Part shown: positions 1 to 26,969 of the stretch, in pieces
Layout of the letters: every line of letters starts with the position of its first letter
How positions within the stretch are numbered: the first letter of the stretch is position 1
Source of the DNA: a virus
Direction: 5' to 3' (one strand)
Length of the DNA stretch: 26,969 nt
Virus genome (UHGV): UHGV-2016197
The notes under the pieces: generated by a model
What the model was told of the DNA's origin: nothing
Databases searched by the model: none
What the model saw: the letters and a program-made list of their open reading frames with translations, nothing else
Translations under genes and position numbers: made by a program

Positions 1-83
1 TCACTCTGCCAGATGGCGCAATGCCATCTGGTATCACTTAAAGGTATTAAAAACAACTTTTTGTCTTTTTACCTTCCCGTTTC

Positions 84-246
84 GCTCAAGTTAGTATAAA
101 AAAGCTGAACGTGAAACATTAAAAACCATTAATATCAATGCATTACAATATCTTTAGTCTAAAAAATAGACTACATAATGCGACAAAACACAACATATCC
201 AGTCACTATGAATCAACTACTTAGATAGTATTAGTGACCTGTAGCA
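84..246. other. attR: Prophage attachment site attR (P arm - 15-bp core - B' flank), lambda type; host chromosome lies to the left
   Basis: Plus strand 91-105 ttagtataaaaaagc is the reverse complement of the lambda common core GCTTTTTTATACTAA. Left of it (plus 81-90) is the B'-type flank (reverse complement AACTTGAGCG); right of it are arm-type Int sites CAGTCACTAT (200-209) and ATTAGTGACCT (230-240). Comparison is to lambda att as recalled from memory. Confidence 0.7.
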
Positions 247-250
247 GAGC

Positions 251-292
251 ATTAGCGCAAGGTGATTTTTGTCCTCTTGCGCTAATTTTTTG
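251..292 (+). terminator. Rho-independent terminator, lambda tI/sib-like retroregulatory hairpin
   Basis: Perfect 11-bp stem ATTAGCGCAAG (251-261) / CTTGCGCTAAT (276-286) followed by TTTTTT. Position just beyond the P arm and near-identity to my recollection of the lambda tI/sib region. Confidence 0.6.
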
Positions 293-783
293 TCAACGCA
301 CTGGGTTAGTTGAATTTACAACCATGCTCAGTATCTCGATAAACGCAGAGAAATGATGCAGTGGTGGGCAGATTGGCTTGATGAAAGTGTGCTGTAATCC
401 TCATATCCAACCTAAGAGATATGCACAATTTTGTGAATAAGATATTGAGAATTAGCGAAAAGTTTTATTTTGCGTATCATCAATTCAGAATACAAAGTCA
501 CATGCTAATGTTCTGCATTGGTATCTTTTGCTTATCCATGTCTACATTATCGCCAAAATAATAGGTTTTGCCTATCAATTATTTGAATTACTTCCATGAA
601 ATTATAACGCACTTGTAATTTTTGATTATTTTTACCTCTCAAGTGTTTTGTTTCTTCTATCTCTTTGTATTTTTAGCGAAAGTATGCCATATTGCATTCT
701 AATATAACGTGGCGTTGTTTCTGTTTAATGATTTAAATAGTTCAACATAATATTTGCTAACAAATTATATCCAAGCAAATCAT

Positions 784-1929
784 ATGATATTATCATTACA
801 ATATATTAGAGGAATAGCATCATTACTTGTTGTTTTATTCCACTTCAGATTCTTGCTAAATGAGCACTACTCTCAGAAAGATTTGGGTGACCTATTATTT
901 GGGAATGGGCTGTCTGGAGTTGATATATTCTTCATATTAAGTGGATTTATCATCGTATACTCAACAAGAAAGAAGGAAGTTAATGATACTTTCTCATTCT
1001 CAATTAGAAGAATATTTAGAATATACCCATTACTAATCACATGCTGTTGCATGTATTACATAATAAACACTCAATTTCTAACCTATGCTACAGTTGAAAA
1101 CTTTAGAACATTACTTATTTCCATCATTCCATTAAATATAAACTGGAATGAAGGCGCTCCATTCTTTGCCTATAATCTTTTGTACCCGGCCTGGACGATA
1201 ACATATGAAATTGGTTTCTATGTTTTTTTCGGGGTATCAATGTCTATTTCGCATAAATACAGAACAATTATCTGTTCTGTTTTTATAATCATGGTGGTCT
1301 CATTTACACAATACTATGTGAATGGAAATATATCATTTTCAGGTGATGTTAGTGCAGGGTTATTTACAGATAACTGGTTATTAGGATATACAAATGTTAT
1401 TACATCTCCAATGATGTATGAATTCGTTATTGGGATGTTTCTTTCTGAAATATTTACAAACATCAACGAAAGAAAAAGTATTAAAAGGATACTTTCAAAG
1501 TATTCGCTTCAAATACTATGGATTTCATGTGGTATATCCATAATATTATTCATTATCCAGCGACCTTATGGGCATGGATTGAATGGATTTGGGACTATGG
1601 CGATGATACTTATTGCATCATCATTAGTATATGAATACTGCAATATAACACCCAAAATAAAAATATTTAATTTCCTTGGTGAAATATCATATTCTTTATA
1701 TCTAATTCACGCCGTGATACTTGCTTTGTTCTTCTATTATAAGGCAGACCTTGCTGAAATTGGCATAACTGGTGGATTTTCTGTGTTTTTTTCCTTGGTT
1801 ATTATCTCAATAACTGCATCATATCCAATATATATTCTCATTGAAAAGCCAATGATAAATATAGGCAAACGTTTAATTGACAAGAGAAACAATAGCATTA
1901 ATAAAAAAGAAACCGAAATAACAGCGTGA
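784..1929 (+). CDS. Acyltransferase family 3 integral membrane protein; probable surface-polysaccharide (O-antigen) O-acyltransferase, lysogenic conversion moron
   Basis: Translation has the acyltransferase-3 N-terminal pattern (LQYIRGIASLLVVLFH ... GVDIFFILSGFII) and multiple hydrophobic segments. Strongly AT-rich relative to the rest of the window. The ORF-track start at 754 is TTG; first ATG is 784. Sits where Sf6 carries oac (between tailspike and att). Confidence 0.8.
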   Translation: MILSLQYIRGIASLLVVLFHFRFLLNEHYSQKDLGDLLFGNGLSGVDIFFILSGFIIVYSTRKKEVNDTFSFSIRRIFRIYPLLITCCCMYYIINTQFLTYATVENFRTLLISIIPLNINWNEGAPFFAYNLLYPAWTITYEIGFYVFFGVSMSISHKYRTIICSVFIIMVVSFTQYYVNGNISFSGDVSAGLFTDNWLLGYTNVITSPMMYEFVIGMFLSEIFTNINERKSIKRILSKYSLQILWISCGISIILFIIQRPYGHGLNGFGTMAMILIASSLVYEYCNITPKIKIFNFLGEISYSLYLIHAVILALFFYYKADLAEIGITGGFSVFFSLVIISITASYPIYILIEKPMINIGKRLIDKRNNSINKKETEITA

Positions 1930-1941
1930 TAATGACAAAGT

Positions 1942-1968
1942 TAGTGCCGGGATACCCCGGCACTTTTT
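1942..1968 (+). terminator. Rho-independent terminator of the acyltransferase gene, shared with the convergent tailspike 3' end
   Basis: Stem GTGCCGG (1944-1950) / CCGGCAC (1957-1963), loop GATACC, then TTTTTAAT. The tailspike stop codon (1967-1969) lies inside the T tract. Confidence 0.55.
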
Positions 1969-3913
1969 AATCTATTTCGTAAGTGACAGTGATTATCACC
2001 TCTGCATTATTACCCAAAACATTTCGATATATATTCATATTACCTGATAATGTAGTTGCTCCAGTAAGAGTTATATAACTACTATTTGCATCAACCCTTG
2101 GAAGTAAAGCGGTAACTGCTGTTGTTAAATTATTATAGTAGCCTGTACTTCCAACATATGCAGCTTTATTGCTTGATACATATGGTAACCCTCCAATTCT
2201 GAAACCATCTCCTGACCCAATTAAAGTTATACCAAGGTGACATGTTGCCGTTATGATATTGCCACTCCTGACATAATTTCCTTTCTGCTGATAATATGTG
2301 GCATTACCACCTACAGTCGGAATCCAAACTCCAGTTTCTATATCACCACATGACCAGTCTTCTGCTGTTGTTAGTTTTCCAGTAACAATAAATTTACTTC
2401 CCCCACCAGAATTATAAGGAACAAAAATTGGATTTATTCTTGCATAAGTGTTACCGGTCTGCTCATTAAGATCATTTCTACCAATAAGAACCTGACCATT
2501 TTCAAAGTTTGATATCTGGCAGTCAGTTACACTCCAGCCCCTTAATTTTACATCAGCATCCATGACGCCAATAAGCTTGCCAGCGTTACCAATTTTTTCT
2601 TTATGCATATTTACATACACATTTCTTACCGTAACAGACTGAGGGAACAGATAATTAGCAGGATTGGTTTTATCACTTAAAACAGATATTACCCAAGGTC
2701 TGTATTGAGTACTTACTTCACAATAAAATCCATCAATAAGTGTTCCAGATGCCGCTGGTCCAAGTAGTATTCCACCTGTAGAGTGATGCGCACTACCTCC
2801 AATTACTCTCCCCTTAACGCAGTTAATATAGGCAAAATATCCTAAATCTTGATTGTCATAGGCTGACATAGCACAGTCTCTAACTGTTACTCGCGAATTT
2901 CCTCCATCATAAGCTGAGCCATCAGTTTTCTTACCAACTATTGATATAAAGTTACCAATAGCAACTCGACTATAAAAAGTTTTTTTATAACACCCCTCAA
3001 TTAAAATATCCCAGTTTTCAAACTGAGCATATATATCATAAGAGCTGGCGTTCCCATAATCTATGAAATCACAATATCTTATTTTCGGCGTATAAACGGC
3101 ACTTTTTATCTTTATACCACCTAATGCTCTCTCCCCACCTGTGAATCTAATGCCAGTAACGGTGTAATCGCCTTGATAGAAATTATCTGCGGTAGGATTA
3201 TTTTCGTCAGAATCATCACCCAATATAATAGCAAATTCACTCCCTGAATAATTAATTGTAGCCCCCTTATTTGAATATATAGTTACAGGCCTTATAAACT
3301 CCAAAGAATTACTTATTAGATACTCTCCATAAGGAAAAAAAATCTCAACTGGTGGTGAGTACTTAGGTCTGGAGTTTACGTAATTCATAATATTGATTAC
3401 ACCAACATCATCATTCGTGCCATCACCTTTAAACCCAAAGTCTTTCGCGCTCACAAAATCTGCATTTTTATCGTGCTGTGCTCTCTCGATTGCCATAGAG
3501 AGAGGTTGTTTTACACGAACAACTGAATCATCAACTAATAATGGCCCATTTTCAGATAGCAATCTTTCCTGAAATTGATCAGGATCATACTTCAGCACAT
3601 TAGGAAAATAGAACTGCTGCGAACCATACGCATCATAAACAGCCATAGAATGACCTTGCACAGTTACGAATTTGGCAATCTGCCCGTTATATACCGGATA
3701 TCCAGCAGCGTTAATGATGATTGGCTGTGCAACAGAAACGTGAGAGCCGTCTTCGTTTTCCACATAAACCTGAATCTGGTTTTCAGGATTTACAGGGTCA
3801 GTGTCAATTTTACCGATATAAATTTTGCCATTGGCTACGGCTTTAAAAGAACGCGCCATAGTGAAAAGTTGCGAAGGCATCGATACGATCACATTGGCTG
3901 TAATGTCTGTCAT
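1967..3913 (-). CDS. Tailspike protein (P22 gp9-type head-binding N-terminus, divergent receptor-binding domain)
   Basis: N-terminal ~110 aa ([11 protein letters not shown]...[20 protein letters not shown]...[13 protein letters not shown]...VLKYDPDQF) match the P22 gp9 head-binding domain from memory; remainder has beta-helix-like repetitive composition. ATG verified at 3913. Confidence 0.9.
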
Positions 3914-3977
3914 TTAATTTGCTCCAGATACAAGGAATCGCCGCAGCATGGCTACGGTGAGTATTTGTTTGCTTTTT

Positions 3978-4000
3978 GCACTACACTTTTTGTGTAGTGC
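3978..4000. repeat. Perfect 9-bp inverted repeat with 5-nt loop in the tailspike leader
   Basis: gcactacac (3978-3986) ttttt gtgtagtgc (3992-4000); not followed by a U tract on either strand, so operator or RNA hairpin rather than terminator. Confidence 0.4.
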
Positions 4001-4047
4001 TATCTCTCAAGGCCATAGCCGCTGAGTAGCTACGGTGAATTTTGGGC

Positions 4048-4074
4048 ATAAAAAAACCCAGCCGAAGCTGGGTC
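4048..4074 (-). terminator. Rho-independent terminator (minus strand)
   Basis: Minus-strand RNA CCCAGC-UUCG-GCUGGG followed by seven U (plus-strand A run 4050-4056). Confidence 0.6.
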
Positions 4075-4121
4075 GTTGCGTTGGTTATCTGTCAGTAGTT
4101 ATGTACTGGCTGAAGGATTTG

Positions 4122-4147
4122 TACAAAAACCCACCTGACGGTGGGTT
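4122..4147 (-). terminator. Rho-independent terminator immediately downstream of the 322-aa gene (minus strand)
   Basis: Stem AACCCACC (4128-4135) / GGTGGGTT (4140-4147), 4-nt loop, U-rich tail on the minus strand (UUUUUGU). Confidence 0.6.
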
Positions 4148-4153
4148 TCATAA

Positions 4154-5122
4154 TTAGATTTCTGGTTTCATTCTTCCAAAAACCTTTTCTATTCCTTTTT
4201 CGTATTCTTCTCTTGTCTCACTCATCGCTGCGACCCCAAGAAGCTTACCGATATGCTGACGCAAAGCCTTGACACCAATTTCAGAAAGGAACAGATGCAA
4301 CTTATCAGATTGTTTTCCGTTCTCGTCTCGGCTGGCTCGAATCTGTTCAAGGATTTTACCTTTACTCTTTGCTAGCGGGGTGTATATCTGCATGTTGGTT
4401 AGCTGCCCAAAACGAATAGGCCGTCCTTTCTCTGGCCTATTCAGGCCGTACAGTCGATACCACTCCTCGTATAGCTCATCTGGAAATTCCTTTTCATATT
4501 GACGAGCTTCTTCACGAACAAACGCTTTGAACTCGTCAATGACAGCCTGAACTTCTGGACGATAACCAGCAAGCGCATACGCAACCCCCTTAATTCCCGC
4601 CTTAGCGGAGGCATTAATAAGTCTCTGTGCTGCGGCGGCTGCCTTTAACCGTGATTGTGGTAGATCGTCATTATCTTTGGCTTCTATTAGTGCCCTACCA
4701 ATATCAACAATTGCTGTAATGTCATAACCTAACGCTTGATGAACGGTTTTAGACTTCGAAGTAAGTTGAAATTTATAGGGATTTTCCATTTTTCGCTGCA
4801 ATTCTAGATCTCGGTATTTGCTCATATACTGAGCGCCAAGTAGTTGATCTAAATCCCTGGCATGTTCACCAATCCCTAGCAACTGAGATAATCCAGTTTT
4901 CGTAACAACGACAGTTTTCGACTCGTCATCCAGTACATAACATTCAGCATCAATGCCAAAATCATCTAAAAAGTTACCACGATGAGTTGCCCTGAGAATC
5001 TTACTTTTCCATCTTGCAGCAGCTGCTTTCTTTGCTATTTCAGAACGCTGCTCTTTAGTCAGCGACTTTGCGCGAGCGATCCCGCCCTTAGCTTTCCCTT
5101 CACTACTTTTCTTTTCTGTCAT
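4154..5122 (-). CDS. Hypothetical accessory protein, P63C-domain-like, with basic N-terminal putative nucleic-acid-binding segment; function unknown
   Basis: 322-aa ORF; ATG verified at 5122 with AAGGTG Shine-Dalgarno. N-terminus KGGIARAKSLTKEQRSEIAKKAAAARW followed by ATHRGNFLDDFGIDAECYVLDDESKTVV resembles the pattern I recall for P63C-domain phage proteins. Own promoter and two terminators; not part of the P22 core virion gene set. Confidence 0.7.
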   Translation of the reverse strand: MTEKKSSEGKAKGGIARAKSLTKEQRSEIAKKAAAARWKSKILRATHRGNFLDDFGIDAECYVLDDESKTVVVTKTGLSQLLGIGEHARDLDQLLGAQYMSKYRDLELQRKMENPYKFQLTSKSKTVHQALGYDITAIVDIGRALIEAKDNDDLPQSRLKAAAAAQRLINASAKAGIKGVAYALAGYRPEVQAVIDEFKAFVREEARQYEKEFPDELYEEWYRLYGLNRPEKGRPIRFGQLTNMQIYTPLAKSKGKILEQIRASRDENGKQSDKLHLFLSEIGVKALRQHIGKLLGVAAMSETREEYEKGIEKVFGRMKPEI

Positions 5123-5277
5123 AATGCAAGCACCTTGTTGTGATATATGCTTGCATTATATACACTGTACACACATACAAGCAAGCATAAAACCAAAACA
5201 AAATGCTTGCATTACAACCGCGCTACTCCAACTACACATTATCATCTGGTATCCTGCACAAAACTAAGGAGGTTGGT
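5123..5277. promoter_or_regulatory. Divergent control region with four copies of a 9-10 bp operator-like motif (ATGCTTGCAT and its complement) and a perfect TATAAT for the minus-strand gene
   Basis: Motif copies at 5124-5132, 5147-5156, 5181-5188 and 5203-5212 in alternating orientation, forming two inverted-repeat pairs with 14-15 bp spacers. Minus-strand TATAAT at 5155-5160 abuts one copy; AAGGAGG Shine-Dalgarno at 5266-5272 serves the plus-strand ORF. Confidence 0.5.
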
Positions 5278-5606
5278 GTGCTTGAATGGTTTCTGTTGGC
5301 TGCATTAGTCGTTTCTGGTTTGGTGTATGAGTATCGAATGCACTCTCTAACAAAAAAATAGGAATTCTAGAAAACGAATATTGTGCTCTCAAATCCTCAC
5401 TGGAACGTGAGCAAGGGGACTTAAAAATCTCTCTGTCTAGCATTGAGCGTTCTATAGAGAGCTTAGAGGATAAGGTTGATCGTATAAAGAATGAGGATAT
5501 TCATGATATTAAGGACGACATATCCTTCTTAAAATCTTGGTTGAAAAATGTTGGGAAAATTGCCACATCAACACGAGATAAGCTCAATCCATCCATGGAT
5601 GACTAA
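5278..5606 (+). CDS. Small membrane-anchor ORF (27 codons, GTG start) that reaches a 83-codon coiled-coil-like downstream frame only through a -1 shift at an A7 tract; possible recoded gene, phase-variable gene or frameshifted pseudogene
   Basis: Strong SD AAGGAGG + 5 nt + GTG (5278). Frame 0 reads (M)LEWFLLAALVVSGLVYEYRMHSLTKK then TAG at 5359-5361. Heptamer A_AAA_AAA at 5352-5358; -1 frame continues IGILENEYCALKSSLEREQGDLKISLSSIERSIESLEDKVDRIKNEDIHDIKDDISFLKSWLKNVGKIATSTRDKLNPSMDD to TAA at 5604-5606 and has no ATG/GTG/TTG start of its own. Confidence 0.3.
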
Positions 5607-7766
5607 TTACTCCTGTGCCATTCCGCTTAGCGATGCCACAATTCCAGCTCTTGCTAAACGCTGGAACTCTTCGTTTCCTAGTGCCTCGCGTATTGCTTTT
5701 ACGGCGGCCTTATTTGCCATAAATCTGCGTTCCGCTGCCGCTAATGCTTCTTTGCTTCCGCCTGCTCTTACTGCTTTAGTGGCTTCCTGAACTGCTTTCT
5801 CTATCGCATACCGACCACTACGTGTGGTGGCAATTTTAGATACAGCGCCTTTTAACCCAGCGCCAACTAAAGCACCTGCGGCAGCGCCTGCAATGCCTCC
5901 TCCAGCGCCACCAACAATGGCACCTGATGTTGAGTTGGCAATTGCATTTAACACTGTTGATGTGACGTTGGATAAACCAGCATCCAGATCGCGTAGTACA
6001 TTGGCAGTTCTCCCTGTTCTTTCAATATACTGCTGAGGTTTCACTGCTGCTCTTGCAAGAGTGCCATACGCATCAGCAATTCTTCCAAGCTCTGAGGAAT
6101 ATCTGCTAATGGCTTTTACATTTTGTGGAGTGAGTATCTCTGCGATATGGTTAATTCCTGCTGCATCAGCTTTGCCACCACGTACACCATGCGAGATGGC
6201 ATCCTGCAACATTGATGATATAGCAGGAACACGCTCTGATTCTGGCAGCGCGCGGATCATAGAATGGAATCCAGCAGGACCATTAAGACCTTTAGCTGAC
6301 GATGATTGAAGGGATTTTACTCCATTCGTAATCAGTGCATCTGTTGCCAAATCACGCCCGAAAACAGACTCTGCACTCTCTTGTGCTGATAACCTCGCTT
6401 TAGACAGATCATTAGCTTTTTGCCAGTCATCAAGAAATCCGCCGTTTTCCGCCATTGTGCGCATATCATCAGTAATTGCCCGGCGTATTTCCCCTGCTCT
6501 CCTTGCCGCATTTGCCTCTCCGCTACGCTTATATTTTTGCTCCGCATCAGCAAATTTCGCTCTCCATGCTTTCATGCCATCAAATGTTACTCCACCTTGA
6601 TTGTTTGCCTGAACAAACTGTTTCATTTCAGGAGTAAGCGGTATGCCGGCAGATCGCTCTGCCTGAATAACGGCATTACCATTTAGCATTCTTGCTTTTT
6701 GATTTGGCATTGTTGACCGTACGTCATCCCATGCCGCGCGCTCGGCATCCTTCATCTGATCAAGATTTTGAAGAATCCTTTGTTTTATAGCCGCACTTTT
6801 TTCTGATGCCGTTCCAGATGCGGCCCCAAATTCATCAAGGTTTCGACTTAACTTTGATGATATTTCGTTAAATGCTGCCTGATGGGCGTCCTGAACAATT
6901 CCTGGTGTTGATGCCAATGCGCCTTCGGCTTGTGCAATTCCACGACTTCCAGATCGCATTCCTGGTGTTAATGCGTTTATATCAATTCCAGCAGACTCAG
7001 CCGCTTTTGCTACATCTTCGGACACATTAGCGGCCTGACTGGCAATTGACTGACGCCCAGCACCTGACTTTGCCATCCTGGAAACATCATTAGCAGAATT
7101 CAGTGCTGCACCACCAAGAGCCTGTGAAACCCTTGGCGCAATAACGCGCCCGACACCTGAAAGAACGCCTTGAGCACCAATATTGATACCACCGTTAATG
7201 GCAGCATTTTGTGCAAAGTCGCCCTCCTGATTTGCAGCATCAGCAAGAGAACCTGCAATCATGTTTCCTGCGGAACCGATATCTCCAGCGAGCTTTGCTG
7301 TCGCTCCAGCAGCTTTTGCCGCTGTGCCAATTGGCAGGAGATACCCACCAAATGTTTCACCGGCTTGCGCCCAACGGTCTGTCGGTCGATCGACAGGGCG
7401 ATAAACATCATCCAAAACCTTGGGGCCACCAAGCCCATGGCTGATTGCATTAATCAGACTTGCGCCACCCTGCAATACGTCAAATGGTATGTTTACCAGA
7501 CCACGACCAGCCTGTTCTGCAATTTGCCCTGCACTTTGACCACCTGTGAGCCAATCGCCAGCTTGTTGCATCAATGATGGTTCTTCTTTCTGCTGCTGAT
7601 GCGGAGGGTATGCTGCATAAAACTGATCTCTTGCTTCAGCCCATTTGTCACCAGCCTTAGGGGCAACAACCTCATCAAAATATTGCGCTTGAGCCTGTGC
7701 TTTCTGTTCTTCAGTTAACGCCTGATACTGTGGAGAGGCGATAACATCTTTCCATGCTTTAGCCAT
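5607..7766 (-). CDS. Ejection (pilot) protein, P22 gp16-like
   Basis: 719-aa Ala/Gly/Gln-rich protein at the gp16 position, last gene of the head-tail operon; ATG verified at 7766, overlapping the upstream stop (TAATG). Confidence 0.75.
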
Positions 7767-9154
7767 TAATCACCCCATAGTGAAGAAAAGTTACTGCTGG
7801 CTGCTGGCTGTGATACCTGTGCAGGTTGAGATTGCTGCCGCTGAGATTTACCAACATTAACGTTATATTGTTGGTTGTAATTGTTGGTGTATTCCTGAAT
7901 CTCACGAATCGACTGCTGCATAGCCTCCGGGCTTGAATAGTCAACCTGCGGCATCCCCTGAAAATACATCTTCGCTTCTGCAACGGTGTTAATACCACTG
8001 GCACCCATGTCCCTTGCTGCCGCCACACCCTGTTTCTGCATTCTGCCCTGAATACGTTGTGCTGAGTTATATAACTGGCGCTGCTCTTTTCCCGTTAATC
8101 GGCTGCGAACATCAGCACCAATTGCTGGATTACCTGCACCGCCTGTCATTCCTGTCATGAAATCGAGAGCAGAAGCGTCTGCATTTGCGATCGCGTCGAT
8201 ATCCTTCTTCATGGCATAGTTTTGTGCTGATGCAGACGATGTTGCCGGCGCAGCGATTGAACTGGCAGGAACGCGAACCATATTCCCCTCGTTGTCGATG
8301 CCTTCGTAGAACGCATTAGCCCCAGCGCCGTGAAGTTTCCCTCCTACCGTTACAGTTCTGCCATCTGATAACTGAACTGTACGCTCATCATTCCCAGCGG
8401 TTCCTCTTGTTGACGCTCGCTGCATTGCCAAATCCTGCCCGCGTCGCGCAGTAGAAGCAGATAAGTCCTGACCGCGCATCGTGATGTTCTGACCTCGTGC
8501 TGTTAGCGCCTCTCCAGCCTGATTGCTGCGGATTGTCTCTGCCAGCCTGCCTCGGTCAATTTCACGACCAGCCATCTTGTCCTGAACATTGAAGTAATCA
8601 ATCGGACCAAGAGCAGCCATCCCAAGGTGATCAACAAACTCACCAAATCCTGAAGGATTCTGCTGATACATCTGAGCAACGCTGTTAGGGTCAACACCGA
8701 CGCGAGTCAGTTCCTTGGCGTTGTTTTGCAGCCATGATTGCATTGCTTCTGGAGACGATGACGCAAGGCGTGCGCCAGCCGCTAAGGTGCCGATAGAATT
8801 ACGCTGGTCTTCATCAATGAATCCCATGCCTTTACGAACGGATTCAATCTGGTCTGGATATTGAGTAGCCAACTGACGCAAAGCACCGCGATCACCAGAC
8901 GCATAAGCATTAGCGTACGCCTGCTGAAATTCTTTCTGCCGCTGAGCCTGCTTCTCCTGCTGAAACACCCCCGCAATACCTGAAAGGCCTTGCAAAGCAG
9001 TCAGCCCAACATTGTTAGCGCCTGAACGCTCAATATCATTGTTCTGCCTGATAAGCTGAAGCGTATTGCCGATGTCATTTACGCTCGGAGCGTTTGAGTT
9101 GACGCCGCCGATACCAGCCAACAATCCGCCATTTGATCCTTGCCAAGTAGCCAT
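7766..9154 (-). CDS. Ejection protein, P22 gp20-like
   Basis: 462 aa, conserved position between gp7 and gp16 homologues; ATG verified at 9154. Confidence 0.75.
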
Positions 9155-9163
9155 GATTACCCC

Positions 9164-9856
9164 TTAAAACAACGAGCCAAGCAATCCGATACCAGCACCA
9201 ATGCCAGCGCCCCAAGGTGTTGATGTTCCCAAAAGGCTGGCAAGACCTGCACCGGCAATCGCACCAGACGTGCCACCGCTAATTGCAGTCTGAAGACTTG
9301 ATGGTTTATTGGCATTAGCAGCGGCAAGAGCTGCGCTTTGCTGTGCAATGCTGCTCATGTTGTTGGCGTACGTCTGCCCGGCGTTTGCCTGACCTTGCAG
9401 AGCACCAAGCCCAACGTTTGCCAGATTGTTGTAATTGCTCATCTGGTTTGATAACCAAGACTGACCGAGAGTCGGCGCGATCGTAGCCAGTTGATTGCTT
9501 GTGGCTGTCGAACCAAGTCCTCCCGTAGCCTCCGCAGCAGCAAGACTCTGGTAACGAGCCTGACCTGCAAGGTCTTTATACTGCTGAGAGTTGTAATACT
9601 GATTAAGTGCCTGCCCCTGACCTTCCAAACTGGAAAGGTTCTGAAGCTGGTTAACATACTGCTCCGCAAGAGGCGTGAACGGAGCAAGGTTTTTCATGAT
9701 CGTCTGCCACTGCTGATTTTGCAGGTCTGCGGCATACTTCTGAGCTTCTGCGGCATACTTTGCACTTTTATCAGAACTGCCACCTTTCCCGCCTTTTTCA
9801 TGGCAATAAGGTTCCTCGCCGCGCAGTTTTCTGCCCAGCTTAAATGCATATAACAT
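9164..9856 (-). CDS. Ejection protein, P22 gp7-like
   Basis: 230 aa; N-terminus MLYAFKLGRKLRGEEP...KGGKGGSSDKS and Gly/Ala-rich C-terminus ending GLLGSLF match P22 gp7 from memory; ATG verified at 9856. Confidence 0.8.
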   Translation of the reverse strand: MLYAFKLGRKLRGEEPYCHEKGGKGGSSDKSAKYAAEAQKYAADLQNQQWQTIMKNLAPFTPLAEQYVNQLQNLSSLEGQGQALNQYYNSQQYKDLAGQARYQSLAAAEATGGLGSTATSNQLATIAPTLGQSWLSNQMSNYNNLANVGLGALQGQANAGQTYANNMSSIAQQSAALAAANANKPSSLQTAISGGTSGAIAGAGLASLLGTSTPWGAGIGAGIGLLGSLF

Positions 9857-9858
9857 GG

Positions 9859-10314
9859 CTATCTCCCGTGATTCAGGAAGTCGATTAGTTCTTCGCGTGT
9901 GGCGCTGTAAAACGTCACGTCATCCACGCCTTTGAAGTATTTCTTGATGGTTCCGACACGCTTAAGGCCAATCATTGCGCAGTAAATCTGCCCGTGGCGG
10001 AATTTGCGTGCGGCGAACGATGTGACGCACTGAACGGTGGTGTTAGTCAGAATGTATCGCCAGAACGCCAGCCCGATTTCCTTGCTGAAGCCGCGAATCT
10101 CTGGCAGGTACATGGCGTGGCAATCGAATGTCAGCGGCTGAATCTCCTGATAGTAAACAATGCCGCCGAACTGCCCGTGCACGTTCACCTCAAAGTAACG
10201 GCAATCAGGTTTGTAGTCGTATCCATCACCGTTGTTGCTTCCGGCAATAATGTCAGGGTGATTTCCGACTGCTTCGATCAGGTCGATGTTTCGCGTTGGT
10301 TTGAACTGAATCAT
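9859..10314 (-). CDS. P22 gene 14-like protein (assigned by position)
   Basis: 151-aa ORF between tail needle and gp7 genes, as gene 14 is in P22; ATG at 10314 overlaps the needle stop (TAATG). Confidence 0.65.
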   Translation of the reverse strand: MIQFKPTRNIDLIEAVGNHPDIIAGSNNGDGYDYKPDCRYFEVNVHGQFGGIVYYQEIQPLTFDCHAMYLPEIRGFSKEIGLAFWRYILTNTTVQCVTSFAARKFRHGQIYCAMIGLKRVGTIKKYFKGVDDVTFYSATREELIDFLNHGR

Positions 10315-11162
10315 TACTGCTCCGCGATTATCTTGATGGTTGTGGCAGTAAACGCCGCACCATTAGACTGAATGGTTAACGTGCTGCCATTTGTGGCAAG
10401 AAAGCCGTCTTTATCCACGCTGAAGAACGTAGCTAACAGGATGTTATCGGTTGTTGTCGCCGAGTTGCGACTGCTTACCAGAGTGTCAGGAACAGAGCCG
10501 GAAAAGGTTAGCTGCATTGACCTGTTGGAGGTTCCGCTGGGCCACGTCCCGACGATCGACAGCTTGAATAACAGGGTTTTGTTCTCGTTGAACACAACCA
10601 TCTTGTTGTTAACGGTGTCGAAGAATGGTGCCAACGAGCCGGATGACGGCGTGAGCGTTTTCAGCAGGCTAACAAGGTTGGTCGGCGCTGTCGGAATGGT
10701 TACAGATACGCCAGAGTAAACAACCTCTGACTTTTTTCGAGTAGTGGCATACTCCAGAGCATCAATGCGCGTTTCATGGTCTGAAAGCGTGTTTTGAATG
10801 GCGACAACTTCATCAGTCAGATAATCAATATCGTTTTCTGCTGTCGTTAATCGCGAATCAAGGCCGACTATCGCCGCTTCTGCGTTAGTGATCCTTGTTT
10901 CGTGGTCCTGAATCTTCGCTTCAGCTGATGCCAGTCGAATTTCGTGATCGACCAGAATCACATCCTGCGCATCGTTCCTGACTTGTGCGTCATAAGCGCC
11001 CTGCCCTGCTTCATTGGCCTTGTTCGCCACGTTACCAACATCTGTACCTTGCGCGATAACGTAAAGCAGATACGACTGCGAGAAGATATTGCGTGGAAGG
11101 ACTGATGTATCGAGCCGCGTAGCCTGGATGATTACCGGCTCATTGAGATTCGAATCAGCCAT
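10314..11162 (-). CDS. Tail needle protein (P22 gp26-type coiled-coil N-terminus with Sf6-type C-terminal knob domain)
   Basis: From ATG 11162 (TAATG overlap with the gp10 stop) 282 aa: [43 protein letters not shown]... matches the gp26 N-terminus from memory; the C-terminal ~130 aa are a beta-rich domain unlike the P22 gp26 helical tip. The ORF-track start at 11264 is an in-frame extension into gp10 and was trimmed. Confidence 0.85.
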
Positions 11163-12580
11163 TACTCGATCCTTATCTGGCAACCAGACAGAGTGACAGG
11201 TGACTTCGTGATAACGCGCAATTTGAAGCCAATGTTTTTCCTGATGCGCCCTACTTTCTTCCACAAAACGCGTTTGTCGTAAACGAACGGTTCATTCTGC
11301 TCAATCATCTGCTCACGCCCGTAATTGATGCCGTCAGTGGTTGCAGAGAGGAACAGGCGGTCGGCGTACTGCGCAACGCCAGTTGACGATTCAACCTCAA
11401 GGTCGAAAACTCTGGCGTTATCCGCTTTGAACAACGGAGTAAACAGCAGGTGTTCCTGTTGCTTGTCGTACTGGCTGCTGATGTCGAATTGCAGTTTCCC
11501 GGTAACAGATTCCAGCTTATCGCCGCACGTTATCTGATTGCCTTCGTAAATGAAGTCGATAGCGCGGTACACATCGTCATACAGGCCTGTTTTCAACACA
11601 CACCATTGCGGACCATTGGCGCTTGAAGATGCGTCGTAAACAAGAACATGGCGCGGAAGGTGGATAATCAGCAATTCATGAGCATCAAACCGCAACGATT
11701 CCATCACGCCATCAGCCAGTTCATCAGCAGTGTAGGAGCGTAGTATTTTCTCAATGCTCGCGCTGGCGATTGGTGACACCTGACCGGAGCCGATGATGTA
11801 TACAGACGGCGCACCTGTTGCCGGATTGCTGATGAACGCATACGAATCAGCAAACGGCGTTTTGCAGTAAGTCCCGGCGATTCCTTTTTGCACCATCAAC
11901 GATGGCTGGGCGACATACAAAGCGGCACCAACAGTGGTTGCGCCCGTCAGGGAGAAATATTCAATCGTCGATGAGCCAAAGCAGACGATGAAGTCTCGCC
12001 ATGTTCCGATGCCGATGATGCCGTCAGGCTGCGACTCGGCACGATATTGTGCGCTGTAGCGGTCAGGATGCGATTCGTCTTCAGGGTCAGTGATAAACCA
12101 TGAATCTGTGCCGTCTTTTGACCACGCATAACGCCCACGTAAGCGCGTAATGTCGCGGACTGAGCCTAACTCATACTGAGTAAAACCGCTGTCTGTAGGC
12201 CAGTTTGAGACGGTTTTAACCGTGCCGTCATAACGATACTCGACCAGTTGACCATTAACGCCTACCGCCTGTGATGTCCGACCATGCGCCATTGATACAC
12301 GACCACTTCCGGCGACGTCACCGACTTCACTTTCGCCTTTGTACAGCTTGCCACCACACACACGATAAACAGCATTCTGCGCCATGTTGTACTCAACTCC
12401 GCGCGATACGCCGTTCACATCAGAACGTTTGGCAATGCCCGGGAATGAGCGAAGATATCCGCTGCTGTTCAGGATTTCTTTGGGTGTAGCCAACATATTC
12501 ACTGGCAGATAGTCGATATAGTCGGCGTTTCTAAAGTCTTTGCCGACACCTTTCATAAGCGGAAGTTGCTGAATCGGCAT
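11162..12580 (-). CDS. Tail hub protein, P22 gp10-like
   Basis: 472 aa, same length as P22 gp10; position between gp4 and needle; ATG verified at 12580. Confidence 0.9.
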
Positions 12581-12589
12581 TTATTCACC

Positions 12590-13051
12590 TCACGTACTCG
12601 GATCATCTTTCTCGATGTAAAACCGATTCCACGTAAACGCGCTTTTGTTACCACTACCGCGAGGCATATCATTTCGCCGCTCAAGTGGTGGTATTTTGGT
12701 TAAAGCGATACAGATTGTTTGATATGCACTGTCAGCAGCGGTAAGGAGAGCGTCTGACGGCTGAATGACGTTATCCATGCACACTTGCACAGCGAGTTTC
12801 AAAGCGACGCCATCATTTGCCCATGCAGGGATACCTGAATCATCGTCAGGTAACGGCATGATGCCGTTTTCTGTATCAGCAAACTGATACCCAAGCTCGA
12901 TACCTTTCGCCTGCCATGCTGCCATCATGTCTTCGAGGTCATTAATGGCATCTTCAATTGCCTGAGGGTCAGCATCTGTCAACGTGGCATTGGAATACAG
13001 CCCGGCTTTTCGTAAAGCCTTTAGAACGAGATCACCCTTCGTTTTCGCCAT
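12590..13051 (-). CDS. Tail accessory / head completion protein, P22 gp4-like
   Basis: 153 aa; N-terminus MAKTKGDLVLKALRKAGLYSNATLTD resembles P22 gp4 from memory; ATG verified at 13051. Confidence 0.85.
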   Translation of the reverse strand: MAKTKGDLVLKALRKAGLYSNATLTDADPQAIEDAINDLEDMMAAWQAKGIELGYQFADTENGIMPLPDDDSGIPAWANDGVALKLAVQVCMDNVIQPSDALLTAADSAYQTICIALTKIPPLERRNDMPRGSGNKSAFTWNRFYIEKDDPST

Positions 13052-13220
13052 CTTCTTCCGCCTTAGCCACTTTTTGCTTCGTTGCGGTTTCTTCAGGAGT
13101 TTTTACCCAACCTTTTTTCAGGTGAGATTTAACTTCTTCGTCATCAACAATGATGTAATCGACAGCAAACTGACCACAGGTGATCATGTTGCCAGGCTTA
13201 TAGAGCATTGTTCGTGCCAT
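13032..13220 (-). CDS. Small hypothetical protein between coat and gp4 genes
   Basis: 62 codons from ATG 13220 with GGGAGA Shine-Dalgarno 5 nt upstream; the ORF-track TTG start at 13259 was trimmed. Overlaps the gp4 start by 20 nt. Confidence 0.4.
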   Translation of the reverse strand: MARTMLYKPGNMITCGQFAVDYIIVDDEEVKSHLKKGWVKTPEETATKQKVAKAEEDGENEG

Positions 13221-13229
13221 TGTCTTCTC

Positions 13230-13256
13230 CCAATAAAAATGGGGCCGAAGCCCCAC
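13230..13256 (-). terminator. Intrinsic terminator/attenuator immediately downstream of the coat gene
   Basis: Minus-strand RNA GGGGC-UUCG-GCCCC followed by AUUUUUAUU, 5 nt after the coat stop codon. Confidence 0.55.
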
Positions 13257-13261
13257 CAAAA

Positions 13262-14515
13262 TTACTGCCCGGCAATAACGATGCCCGTATATTCAGGAAC
13301 AAGTACAGAGCAACCGTACAGGGTGGTGAAACGCGCAGTGGTTACACCTTTGATGTGGTCGAAGGCGTAAGACATGATCAGCGTAGCGCCCTGCTCGGTG
13401 GTTGCTGTCATTACCTGTGGACCCTGACCAGTCGGGAACGCCAGCTTGCCGTACATCAGTTCAACAGAACCATCAGCCCAGAACAGGTTAGCCGGTGCGG
13501 CATTTTTGTTGAGAATGGTGATTGCTGCGCTACTTGCCGCATTAGCATCAACGTTTGCATATGGTCGGCTGGCGACATCCGCGTTGTCAGGCGGCAGAAT
13601 TTTCGGGGAGATAGTTACTGTCGTTCCGCTTACTGCCAGAACGCGGAATACCTGCGGCTGCCCGGTGGTATCTTTGGTGATCTGGTGTACAGAATTCACC
13701 CCTGCGATGGTAAACGCATCGCCAACCTGCAAACCTTCAGCAGATACCGTAATGGTCCCCTGTCGGTTATCCACTGGCATATCGTTAGCATCTTTGGCTT
13801 CAACCTTGTGCGCAGGTGCTGCTGCCAGCGTAATGGAAGTTGCTGTACCCTTCGGAACACGACCAGAAATATCGGTCTTGTAGCTATCGAAGGACGCAAC
13901 CGGAGGGATTTGCGCTTTTTCGTATGCTGTCAGGGTTGCGCCCTGAGCATAGGCACGGTGACCAAGCTCGCCAGCAAGGTCTTTGTAGTTGAAGGGGTTC
14001 CAGAAAGAGCGACGGTTGATACCCTGAGGTACACCAATCGCCGTCATGGTGGCATCAATACCTGCCGCACAGTTCCACAAATCACGGCCCTGTGAACCTG
14101 TGGTTGAGTCAGCCATCGTGATCACGTTAGTAGCACGCTGCGTAACCATGGAAATCAGGTCAGAGTCAATCTGTGCAGCAAGGCGCATACCTGCGGCGCG
14201 ACCAGCTTCAGTTTTATGTTCCGGGTCACGCATTTCACGCGCATCCAGAGTGTACAGAATGTTTTTCGGCTCCTTGAACACAGAAGGAACAAGGCGCTGA
14301 ACCAGTGCTGTTGGCGTTTTGCCGCTGAGGTCTAGGCCTTCCTCAATGTTCATGTGGTAATGCTGCGGACGATACAGAACATCACCTGCTCGCTGCATTG
14401 CTGTATCACCGGGACGGAATTTTTTAGCGTTACGGGAAACTACGCAGGCGGCCTCAAAGCCTTCAACGTAGTTTTCGAACATGATTTCAAGGTCTTTTGC
14501 TAATTGGTTAGCCAT
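13262..14515 (-). CDS. Major capsid (coat) protein, P22 gp5-like
   Basis: 417 aa following the scaffold gene; a C-terminal FWADGSVELMYG-type segment resembles the P22 coat from memory; ATG verified at 14515. Confidence 0.9.
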   Translation of the reverse strand: MANQLAKDLEIMFENYVEGFEAACVVSRNAKKFRPGDTAMQRAGDVLYRPQHYHMNIEEGLDLSGKTPTALVQRLVPSVFKEPKNILYTLDAREMRDPEHKTEAGRAAGMRLAAQIDSDLISMVTQRATNVITMADSTTGSQGRDLWNCAAGIDATMTAIGVPQGINRRSFWNPFNYKDLAGELGHRAYAQGATLTAYEKAQIPPVASFDSYKTDISGRVPKGTATSITLAAAPAHKVEAKDANDMPVDNRQGTITVSAEGLQVGDAFTIAGVNSVHQITKDTTGQPQVFRVLAVSGTTVTISPKILPPDNADVASRPYANVDANAASSAAITILNKNAAPANLFWADGSVELMYGKLAFPTGQGPQVMTATTEQGATLIMSYAFDHIKGVTTARFTTLYGCSVLVPEYTGIVIAGQ

Positions 14516-22008: not shown

Positions 22009-22454
22009 GACAGGAACAGAGCTCGCTCTGCCTTGCGGCGATTCGTGAGCCCCGGCATCACCTTTCCGCCTGATTTATTCCAGCGCAGAAATTCATCTGC
22101 CGCGCCTTTTATATCGCCAGCATTCAGCTTTTTCAGCAGTGTAGATGTGGAAAGAGCACGCGACCCAACGTTGTAAGCGAACGACACCAGTGCGTCGAAC
22201 TGGCCTTGTGTCAGCTTCACCCTGACAACTTTCAGCACGTCATTCTCATAACCAACAAGCCCTGTTTTCAGAAGCCTGTCAGCGGTTTGCTGGTCGATAG
22301 TCATACCGCGCTTTACTGGCTTTCCGTCAACCGGATGGGTCCAGCCATAGCCGATGGTCCACGGCGCATCTCCCGTTCCGGGGTCTGGGTAAGCAGTCAG
22401 CCGACAACCTTCAAATTTTTTTATCAGAGCAATTCCGTCAGGACTGGTTTGCAT
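22005..22454 (-). CDS. Endolysin, T4/P22 gp19-type lysozyme (GH24)
   Basis: From ATG 22454 (GGGAG Shine-Dalgarno 6 nt upstream) 149 aa: [24 protein letters not shown] ... ERALFLS, matching the P22 gp19 family from memory. The ORF-track start at 22526 is TTG and was trimmed. Confidence 0.85.
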
Positions 22455-22791
22455 CGTCAACTCCCGCCTTTTTTGCTGCAAGTTTTTTAATAAGATTGCC
22501 GATCGAATCGGTGCCGATGTATCCAATAAAGACGCTGGCTATGTAGGCGAGGTTGCTGCTCAGGCCGATAAAGTCCAGAAGGTCACGAACGAACCAGGCA
22601 ATCATCGCGCACATCAGCGCATCAATTAGCGTTTTTGTTACCGCGCCGCCGTTATAGCGACCACGCAGATACGCCATGATAAAAGCCAGCATTGCACCAA
22701 TACCCTGCTCCTTGGCGGCAAGTAGCGCAGCGATGAAATCTTGTTTGTATGGCAATTTTTTCTCCCTACGCCTGGCACGCGAATTGACCAT
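22438..22791 (-). CDS. S: Class I holin, lambda S-like; start uncertain (ATG 22791 inside the HNH gene, or TTG 22755 just after the HNH stop)
   Basis: From [24 protein letters not shown]... to the end the protein is collinear with lambda S ([24 protein letters not shown]...) as recalled. AGGGAG then 6 nt then in-frame TTG at 22755. Confidence 0.85.
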
Positions 22792-23266
22792 GATATTTCC
22801 CCCTAAACTCTGAGATTACCAACTCAGCAAGTTCGAGATCATCGAAGTAACCCAACCAGATCTGCTTCTTATTTCTACTTCCGCAAACTCTCCATTTCCC
22901 ATTCTTAACATCAAGCCTGACGCCCTTTATGGGATTCTTTCCTCCGGATGGTTTGCGTCTGTTATATTGATTTTCTGATTTGGTCGATAATCTGAGGTTT
23001 TTAATGCCATTGTTTAATGGGTTTCTATCTAAATGATCCACGTCCATTTCTGGCATGCATCCATATACATACAACCAAGCCAGCCGATGCTCTTTATAGA
23101 TTTTCCCATCTATACGTATTTGCCTGTAACCAGATCCATTAATCGTTCCAGCTCTTGAGCCAACTTTAATTCTGCGATTGCTGGATTTAACCCAAGTAAA
23201 AACCCCTGAAACAGGCTCATAGTGCATAAGGCTTTTCAGGACTTGCTGAGTGATTACCATCTTCAT
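22766..23266 (-). CDS. HNH homing endonuclease with AP2-like C-terminal domain
   Basis: 166 aa; HNH motif region [10 protein letters not shown]...[25 protein letters not shown] and C-terminal [27 protein letters not shown]; ATG verified at 23266 with GAGGAGAGAG upstream. Confidence 0.8.
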
Positions 23267-23365
23267 AGTCTCTCTCCTCGCAATAGAAGCGGGAGCTGTG
23301 CGTTGTAGAGAAGCGCCTCACCCATTGCGTTTAAGGGGTAAGTGTTTAGCTGTATGGATGGTCGC

Positions 23366-23394
23366 GAATAAAAAAGCCCACGGCGCGGTGGGCA
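23366..23394 (-). terminator. Intrinsic terminator within the late leader
   Basis: Minus-strand RNA GCCCAC-CGCGCC-GUGGGC followed by UUUUUUAUU. Confidence 0.55.
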
Positions 23395-23644
23395 ATAGAG
23401 GGTAGTGCGTTGAGCTTTTGCTCTTATGGTCCTGGTAGGTATTTGGTGTGTGGTGACCGGTGCTGTGTTTTCCGGCATGTAAATGAACTACCCGTCGTCG
23501 CCATGGTGAGCCTTTACCTCACCATCTAGCTGATAAGTTAGCGCATCAGCCTGCGCATTCACCACAACGATAATTGCACTGCGCCTGTTTCGGTTAGCGT
23601 AACGGGATTAACCGGTCACCCCAATGCAATTATCTGTTGTGCAG

Positions 23645-26539: not shown

Positions 26540-26712
26540 TTCCTCGCACGATGCCTTAGCCACCGGATATCCCACAGGTGAGCCGTGTAGTTGAAGGTTT
26601 TTACGTCAGATTCTTTTGGGATTGGCTTGCGTTTATTTCTGGAGCGTTTCGTTGGAAGGTATTTGCAGTTTTCGCAGATTATGTCGGTGATACTTCGTCG
26701 CTGTCGTCTCAT
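26536..26712 (-). CDS. ninE: NinE
   Basis: 58 aa from ATG 26712 (ATGA overlap with the ninB stop): [52 protein letters not shown]... matches lambda NinE from memory. Confidence 0.7.
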
Positions 26713-26969
26713 TCGTACCTCCTGTCGGTAAATCTGACACCCTGACCAATAGCCCATGCTGTTGTGTACTCGATCAGACTTGCCATACGCTTCACGCTCA
26801 TCTGCGCGCTGCTTTCGCGAATGTTGACGTATTCACCTTCAAGGCCGGGCAAAACATCAGCTTCCTGCTTTGTTGCCACTGCATGACCGCTTATCAACAA
26901 AACCTTCCATTGTTCTGGTTTTAACCATTTGCCGCACCATTGAACCTGACTTGCGATATCCGCCAGCAT
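26709..26969 (-). CDS. ninB: NinB (Orf-family recombination mediator), 3' portion only; 5' end lies beyond the window
   Basis: C-terminal 86 aa [40 protein letters not shown]...[23 protein letters not shown] resemble lambda NinB from memory. Confidence 0.8.

Follow-up and report, generated by a model that had tools for sequence, protein, structure and literature searches.

A lambda-type attR junction and a neighbouring Sf6-type integrase gene remnant at the probable end of a P22-like prophage in the ybhC–ybhB interval

P22-like phages that carry a lambda-type integration module are represented by Huey (PQ850609), JEP4 (MT740315), vB_EcoP-720R6 and phiHS3, which have in common a layout consisting of xis, int (with a product 99% identical to lambda Int), attP, the terminator tI, a remnant of an Sf6-type int gene, an accessory cassette, and the tailspike gene. 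In Huey, an isolated phage, the run xis-int-attP-tI-remnant is intact upstream of the tailspike gene, and the integrase is identical to lambda Int at 353 of 356 residues. Phage phiHS3, for which the genus Hueyvirus has been proposed, is reported to integrate upstream of ybhC, to excise both spontaneously and when induced, and to carry out lateral transduction (10.64898/2026.05.19.726188). Two other systems are comparable in part. The E. coli B strains REL606 and BL21 carry a defective prophage at att-lambda, and Sf6, CUS-3 and HK620, with their P4-type, argW-directed integrase, keep a full int gene and have attP on its far side.

The stretch of DNA analysed here, referred to as the window, comprises 26,969 nucleotides of the virus genome UHGV-2016197. 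Its first 292 positions are very probably the attR (P-O-B') of a P22-like prophage having a lambda integration module and residing in the classical lambda attB between ybhC and ybhB/bioA. The layout of the window is that of the Huey-type phages, whose virion genes are ∼94–95% identical to those of the window over about half its length; Huey differs in having a UmuD-like gene and another tailspike where the window has an O-acetyltransferase gene and an E. coli B-type receptor domain. In comparison with lambda attR itself, the core, the ybhC/ybhB site, the order and spacing of P1, H1, P2, X1, X2/F and H2, and the strand of the hairpin are the same, whereas the inner P arm is 76% identical, the sequence past the T-run is unrelated to the lambda b region, and the adjoining virion genes are those of a podovirus (P22/Sf6 type) rather than a siphovirus.

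The initial annotation had placed the prophage end at 91–105 on account of a 15-bp lambda core, and this position is borne out by the sequence comparisons. The core, GCTTTTTTATACTAA, has a single match in the window, located at 91–105 on the minus strand without any mismatch; the plus-strand letters at these positions, TTAGTATAAAAAAGC, are the reverse complement of lambda's 15-bp common core, O, which forms the crossover region of attR. The number of matches expected by chance is ∼0.08 even when up to two mismatches are allowed, and no further match is present in the 27-kb window. A junction alignment was constructed from the window, the empty ybhB–ybhC interval of K-12 MG1655, the int–ybhC interval of a lysogen, and lambda attP. 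In this alignment positions 1–105 are 100% identical to the K-12 intergenic region, as expected from the earlier description of a B'-type host flank, and divergence from K-12 begins directly after the core (105/106), at the point where homology to the lambda P arm starts. The other K-12 arm, B, is identical to the attL flank of the lysogen E. coli 162.2.

Host DNA corresponding to the B' (bio-side) arm of lambda attB thus occupies positions 1–90, as judged by identity to K-12. Two core-type Int sites flank the crossover region: B', CAAGTTAGT, at 87–95 on the plus strand, read from the sequence and the same in K-12 attB, and C, CAGCTTTTT, at 99–107 on the minus strand, identical to lambda. These two assignments follow the established lambda att literature. 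The coordinates given previously for the core, the arm sites and the hairpin are accurate throughout. In the attR of E. coli 162.2 the core (1823–1837 of its compared stretch) departs from the exact sequence at a single base (T instead of C, at the end next to the P arm), and the attL core of the same prophage is exact.

An accidental likeness between AT-rich intergenic DNA and lambda att has in its favour that the region is AT-rich and nothing more, and it can be dismissed outright in view of the exact 15-mer, set against its chance expectation, and of the 179 of 206 bases that are identical to lambda over 91–296 in an alignment free of gaps.

The host flank can be followed well beyond the left edge of the window. 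In related contigs the stop codon of ybhB ends just before window position 1, and contigs encoding an identical tailspike protein run leftward through ybhB, bioA, bioB, bioF, bioC, bioD and uvrB; one sibling contig is 99.986% identical to the window over positions 1–13913 (13.9 kb). Because the flank is identical to K-12 and runs leftward into ybhB, bio and uvrB, it is assigned to the bio-side (B') half of att-lambda. Integration at the lambda attB locus, as initially proposed, is therefore upheld by a continuous ybhB/bio flank in the sibling contigs, and the suggested comparison of positions 1–90 with the host chromosome returns K-12 ybhB–ybhC intergenic DNA beside an att site. The same evidence bears on the idea that core, P arm and host flank together were acquired when a phage once excised aberrantly, in the manner of lambda-bio transducing phages, and are now a fossil inside a larger element. 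Such a fossil does occur in the PPompW prophage of O157-type Stx phage records, as a decayed interior copy of 81% identity. Here, however, the flank is 100% identical to K-12 and continuous for more than 8 kb in near-identical contigs, in the chromosomal order ybhB-bioABFCD-uvrB, which refutes an internal origin and leaves it scarcely any credence as against an attR at a true prophage end. In the Stx2a phage record LC567818.1, the PPompW part (2540–2800 of the compared stretch) comprises a decayed B' flank, core, P arm and tI at ∼81% identity; the copy sits between effector genes and a host-specificity gene and looks like a fossil attR left after an old aberrant excision. For the window, the comparisons fix the exact right end of the prophage at 91–105 and identify the insertion site as the classical att-lambda, which is mainly a gain in annotation.

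To the right of the core, positions 106–296 align with the lambda P arm and tI without gaps, and no insertion or deletion is present. Identity to lambda is 71 of 94 bases (76%) over 106–199 and 93 of 97 (96%) over 200–296. The arm-type Int sites that had been noted are retained in full and without indels: P2, CAGTCACTATG, at 200–210 on the plus strand is identical to lambda at 11 of 11 positions, and P1, CAGGTCACTAAT, read on the minus strand at 230–241, at 12 of 12. Between them lies the IHF site H1, AATCAACTACTTAGATA, at 211–227 on the plus strand, with 16 of 17 bases as in lambda. Toward the core, likewise on the plus strand, follow the Xis site X1 at 183–198 (14/16, with its spacing preserved) and the F/X2 region at 151–180, comprising Fis and Xis sites, in which the F/X2 block agrees with lambda at 18 of 24 positions and X2 (165–180) at 14 of 16. 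The H2 IHF region at 117–145, also on the plus strand, is less similar overall (20/29), and its IHF consensus core, TATCAATGCATTA, is kept at 133–145, including the WATCAANNNNTTR of lambda. On sequence grounds, sites for IHF (H1 and H2), Xis (X1 and X2) and Fis (F) are present at the spacing found in lambda, and binding of the respective proteins is predicted.

The distribution of differences among related att sites is in accord with this prediction. An alignment of eight such sites was used, which includes that of a Salmonella phage (∼78% identity) and the decayed copy from an O157-type prophage. Little or no variation is seen in the core, P1, P2, the IHF cores and the hairpin (P1 is invariant in all eight, P2 nearly invariant, and the ATCAA of H2 invariant), while the spacers vary, with identities down to ∼78%. 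Conserved sites separated by varying spacers are the pattern that would be expected of functional protein-binding sites. The inner P arm (106–199) occurs as two alleles, one found in lambda and E. coli B and the other in the window and Huey, which are ∼75% identical to each other and differ by no indels; the window agrees with the Huey allele at 87 of 94 positions, and E. coli B has the lambda allele. For the outer arm and tI, identity is ∼96% throughout the copies. A recombination breakpoint close to position 200 could account for the contrast between inner and outer arm, as could a stronger constraint on the P2-H1-P1-tI segment.

Just outside P1, on the int-sense strand, there is a GC-rich hairpin with a T-run behind it. 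That this strand is the plus strand can be seen from Huey, whose int gene, once the genome is turned to match the window, is read on the plus strand into attP and tI. The tI terminator and sib hairpin extend over 244–293 on the plus strand and consist of a 12 + 3 bp stem-loop at 251–286, a T-run at 286–291, and an outer pairing of 6 bp between 244–249 and 288–293. Hairpin and T-run (249–293) agree with lambda at 45 of 46 bases, and the lone change, at position 274, is unpaired. The predicted fold has stems of 6, 12 and 3 bp over 244–293, the lambda sequence folds identically, and the fold has a z-score of −3.5 relative to shuffled sequences. The earlier recognition of a tI/sib-like hairpin is thus confirmed with respect to sequence, predicted fold and strand. 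Owing to a mismatch within its stem, tI is absent from the output of a consensus terminator scan of the window, and folding was used instead; Rfam at the gathering threshold yielded no family anywhere in the window. The counterpart element of phage 434 is annotated as a terminator.

In lambda the longer stem of read-through transcripts is a substrate of RNase III and the basis of sib retroregulation. The longer stem between 244–249 and 288–293 is predicted here as it is in lambda, and in an element that hardly varies among the eight sites it is accompanied by no covariation. According to the folding model, the U-run and the next two bases take part in the outer six pairs, which would therefore form only in transcripts that read through the terminator. 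Retroregulation of int by sib, which the initial annotation had suggested, is plausible in view of the 45/46 identity of the hairpin and the predicted fold, and it can operate only when excision or infection has brought int and sib together again. The window itself contains neither pL nor the N-type antiterminator nor int.

The integrase that would have made the junction had been postulated to be of lambda type and encoded outside the window. Support for this comes through analogues. E. coli 162.2 harbors a P22-like prophage between ybhB and ybhC with xis, a 356-codon int gene (99% identity of the product to lambda Int) and, in the interval from int to ybhC, an exact core. Two proviruses in IMG/VR, UViG_2861053794_000004 and UViG_2740892281_000005, both share virion genes with the window and have an attR 92–95% identical to window positions 1–386; both encode an Int 99% identical to lambda Int and Xis, and both have an exact, directly repeated core at the opposite end. 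All three complete P22-like analogues examined have therefore kept int, xis and attL, with the Int and Xis genes adjoining ybhC. Among 80 IMG/VR loci selected solely by their P22-type tailspike, the lambda block of core, P arm and tI is present in 18, and a full Sf6-type int gene at high identity in 27. The lambda int-att-tI module thus circulates as a unit among lambdoid phages with differing virions and is found in about one-fifth of the P22-type proviruses sampled. The combination of a lambda attR with a P22-like prophage is common among public sequences, has been documented experimentally, and is already known.

By analogy with these prophages and with the biology of lambda, a lambda-type Int would have recombined attP (POP') with attB (BOB'), and the genes for Int and Xis together with attL (BOP') would lie ∼38–42 kb to the right, adjoining ybhC, where int, xis and attL of this prophage are predicted. 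Excision would then engage Int at P2 and the core, Xis at X1 and X2, Fis at F, and IHF at H2, with attR paired with the P' arm of attL. In the prophage state sib would be separated from int, as in lambda, so that int mRNA made from pL at induction would be stable. After excision or infection, tI/sib would again be located downstream of int; transcripts from pI would be expected to terminate there, whereas antiterminated pL transcripts would form the longer, RNase III-sensitive stem, and the int mRNA would be destabilised.

An intact attR does not by itself prove a functional partner, as the attR block on the defective prophage of E. coli B illustrates. The junction might thus be a true integration scar whose int, xis or attL has been lost or rearranged, for example through an insertion sequence beside ninB, in which case excision would not occur and attR and sib would be inert relics. 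Along with the E. coli B prophage, at the end of which positions 1–3411 recur at 98% identity, this possibility draws on the right-hand side of the window, where ninB is shortened to 86 codons and an IS element with an rve_3 transposase lies 86 nt past the window's edge in sibling contigs. It is nevertheless rather improbable, since the window contains an uninterrupted P22-like virion, lysis and Q module, ninB is non-essential, and the three complete analogues have kept their integration functions. The attR of a prophage that retains its partner site and integrase gene is accordingly preferred. Look-ups with exact protein sequences (the tailspike, the 86-residue NinB, NinX and the HNH protein) led to the bio-side flank only or to unrelated phages and did not reach attL or int. 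A scan of IMG/VR with a cassette-specific 44-mer returned four E. coli B-type proviruses and one P22-like provirus (with a tailspike 85% identical), none of which yields attL or int. The ninB–IS junction extends over window positions 26709–26969 and beyond (1–368 of the sibling stretch), and draft assemblies break there; the same junction is found in no complete E. coli genome.

Homology to lambda stops near position 295, just past the T-run. The tail genes, which had been described as lying directly beside attR, are in fact 1.6 kb away, with an int remnant (314–397) and an O-acetyltransferase gene (784–1929) intervening. The mosaic joint itself is an 18-nt linker at 296–313, whose last three bases, TGA, share the reading frame of the remnant. 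This joint represents the exchange point, with a lambda int-att-tI unit in place of an Sf6-type int-att unit. The remnant, identified from its translation and DNA identity, is the 3' end of an int gene of the Sf6/CUS-3/HK620 type on the plus strand and comprises 27 codons and a stop (84 nt), a pseudogene fragment. Its translation, IYNHAQYLDKRREMMQWWADWLDESVL followed by the stop, corresponds to the Sf6 Int C-terminus, GIYNHAQYLDKRREMMQWWADWLDEKVR and stop, and positions 314–384 have 97% DNA identity to the 3' ends of the int genes of Sf6 and CUS-3. RefSeq has an 84-nt partial CDS at the remnant in related genomes, including E. coli 162.2. Sf6, CUS-3 and HK620 have the same head gene type, the same int 3' end, and the same order of int, accessory gene and tailspike gene; they retain the full int gene, whereas the window keeps its last 27 codons and has the lambda module in place of the rest.

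The behaviour of this remnant is the only mildly unusual point of the junction. In the copies examined that still have it, among them those of P22-like prophages, phage 434, Salmonella phage 29485 and E. coli B, its first codon is the same and follows immediately upon an in-frame TGA. It is preceded by two different linkers, and in some P22-like proviruses the lambda b region follows tI instead. Differences between remnant copies, counted in the old int frame, are 8 synonymous to 1 non-synonymous for the Salmonella phage and 5 to 0 for REL606. Homology between copies stops at about 384–386, just ahead of the cassette-specific sequence. In vB_EcoP-720R6 the remnant is identical to the 3' end of the functional int gene of CUS-3, and the tail gene that follows has 2946 nt, the length of the CUS-3 endosialidase tailspike gene. 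The pattern of the remnant sequences fits repeated homologous exchange with full-length int genes. A further, tentative suggestion, which we regard as possible though doubtful, is that the remnant has been maintained as a 'boundary sequence', serving lambdoid phages as a recurrent point of exchange for cassettes of host range and serotype conversion.

From position 398 to about 3411 the sequence is a low-GC cassette (28–39% GC), in which the O-acetyltransferase gene lies together with the receptor-binding portion of the tailspike gene. The accessory O-acetyltransferase gene (Acyl_transf_3), at 784–1929 on the plus strand, is recognised by PF01757 (E = 4.5e-31) and phrog_3333 (E = 9e-72) and has a GC content of 28–33%. 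The tailspike gene, at 1967–3913 on the minus strand, encodes a P22-type head-binding N-terminus (PF09008, E = 6.7e-66) joined to a receptor-binding C-terminus that belongs to the cassette; identity to P22 gp9 is 76% and is confined to the first 114 residues. The 98% identity to the defective prophage of E. coli B holds for all of window positions 1–3411, a span that takes in attR, tI, the remnant, the acyltransferase gene and, of the tailspike, its C-terminal 480 residues. The E. coli B prophage differs in that the remainder is not P22-like (tail-fibre assembly genes come next), its tailspike ORF is without the P22 head-binding domain, and the inner P arm has the lambda allele. The interval separating the int remnant from the acyltransferase gene was considered as the possible site of a fossil Sf6-type attP; this was rejected, as the Sf6 attP is on the other side of int and window positions 398–783 match the E. 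coli B-type cassette only. Between the convergent acyltransferase and tailspike genes there is a strong GC-rich hairpin with a T-run (1943–1964), which is probably a shared terminator.

The virion genes follow the P22 order, namely tailspike, gp4, gp10, gp26, gp14, gp7, gp20, gp16, coat, portal and terminase. In tblastn comparisons with P22, identities are 93% for gp10, 92% for gp14 and 81% for gp7, and fall to 29% for coat and 35% for portal. Pfam matches in the sibling contigs include P22_CoatProtein, P22_Tail-4, Phage_stabilise, P22_gp7 and Phage_P22_gp16. Gene order, the PF09008 match and the tblastn identities all agree with the initial assignment of the virion module as P22-like; to judge by sequence, the head genes within it are of the Sf6/CUS-3 type. 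Since the late and terminase genes point toward attR, headful packaging in situ should load ybhB, the bio operon and uvrB. Lateral transduction is hence expected for this prophage, and it has been reported for the related phiHS3 at the same site (10.64898/2026.05.19.726188).

The window had also been interpreted as a three-way mosaic, in which lambda-like Q and holin genes accompany the P22-like virion genes. Both components are present, but the number of parents is overstated, because such Q and holin genes are usual for P22-like phages. The Q protein of the window is 99.5% identical to lambda Q, but lambda Q has 97% identity to P22 gp23 as well; for the holin, identity is 80% with both lambda S and P22 gp13. 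Given these relationships, lambda-like Q and holin genes are normal in P22-like phages and require no third parent. Of the other lysis proteins, the endolysin belongs to the P22 gp19 type, and the spanin resembles its P22 counterpart more closely. The holin gene is a 117-codon ORF at 22438–22791 (PF05106, phrog_126), compared with 107 codons for lambda S. A pinholin of the phage 21 type was considered for the 71-codon ORF at 23263–23478 and rejected, as this ORF has no family match and the holin is encoded at 22438–22791.

Two minor features of the gene map may be added. An HNH endonuclease gene at 22766–23266 is located between Q and the lysis genes and overlaps the start of the N-terminally extended holin gene of the lambda family, and this unit of HNH, holin and lysozyme genes recurs in lambdoid prophages with unrelated virion modules. 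At 4154–5600 the window contains a gene for a 322-codon P63C-domain protein (phrog_2384, function unknown) and a small ORF; the P22 counterpart of this position, between gene 16 and the tailspike gene, is immI (ant, arc, mnt and sieA).
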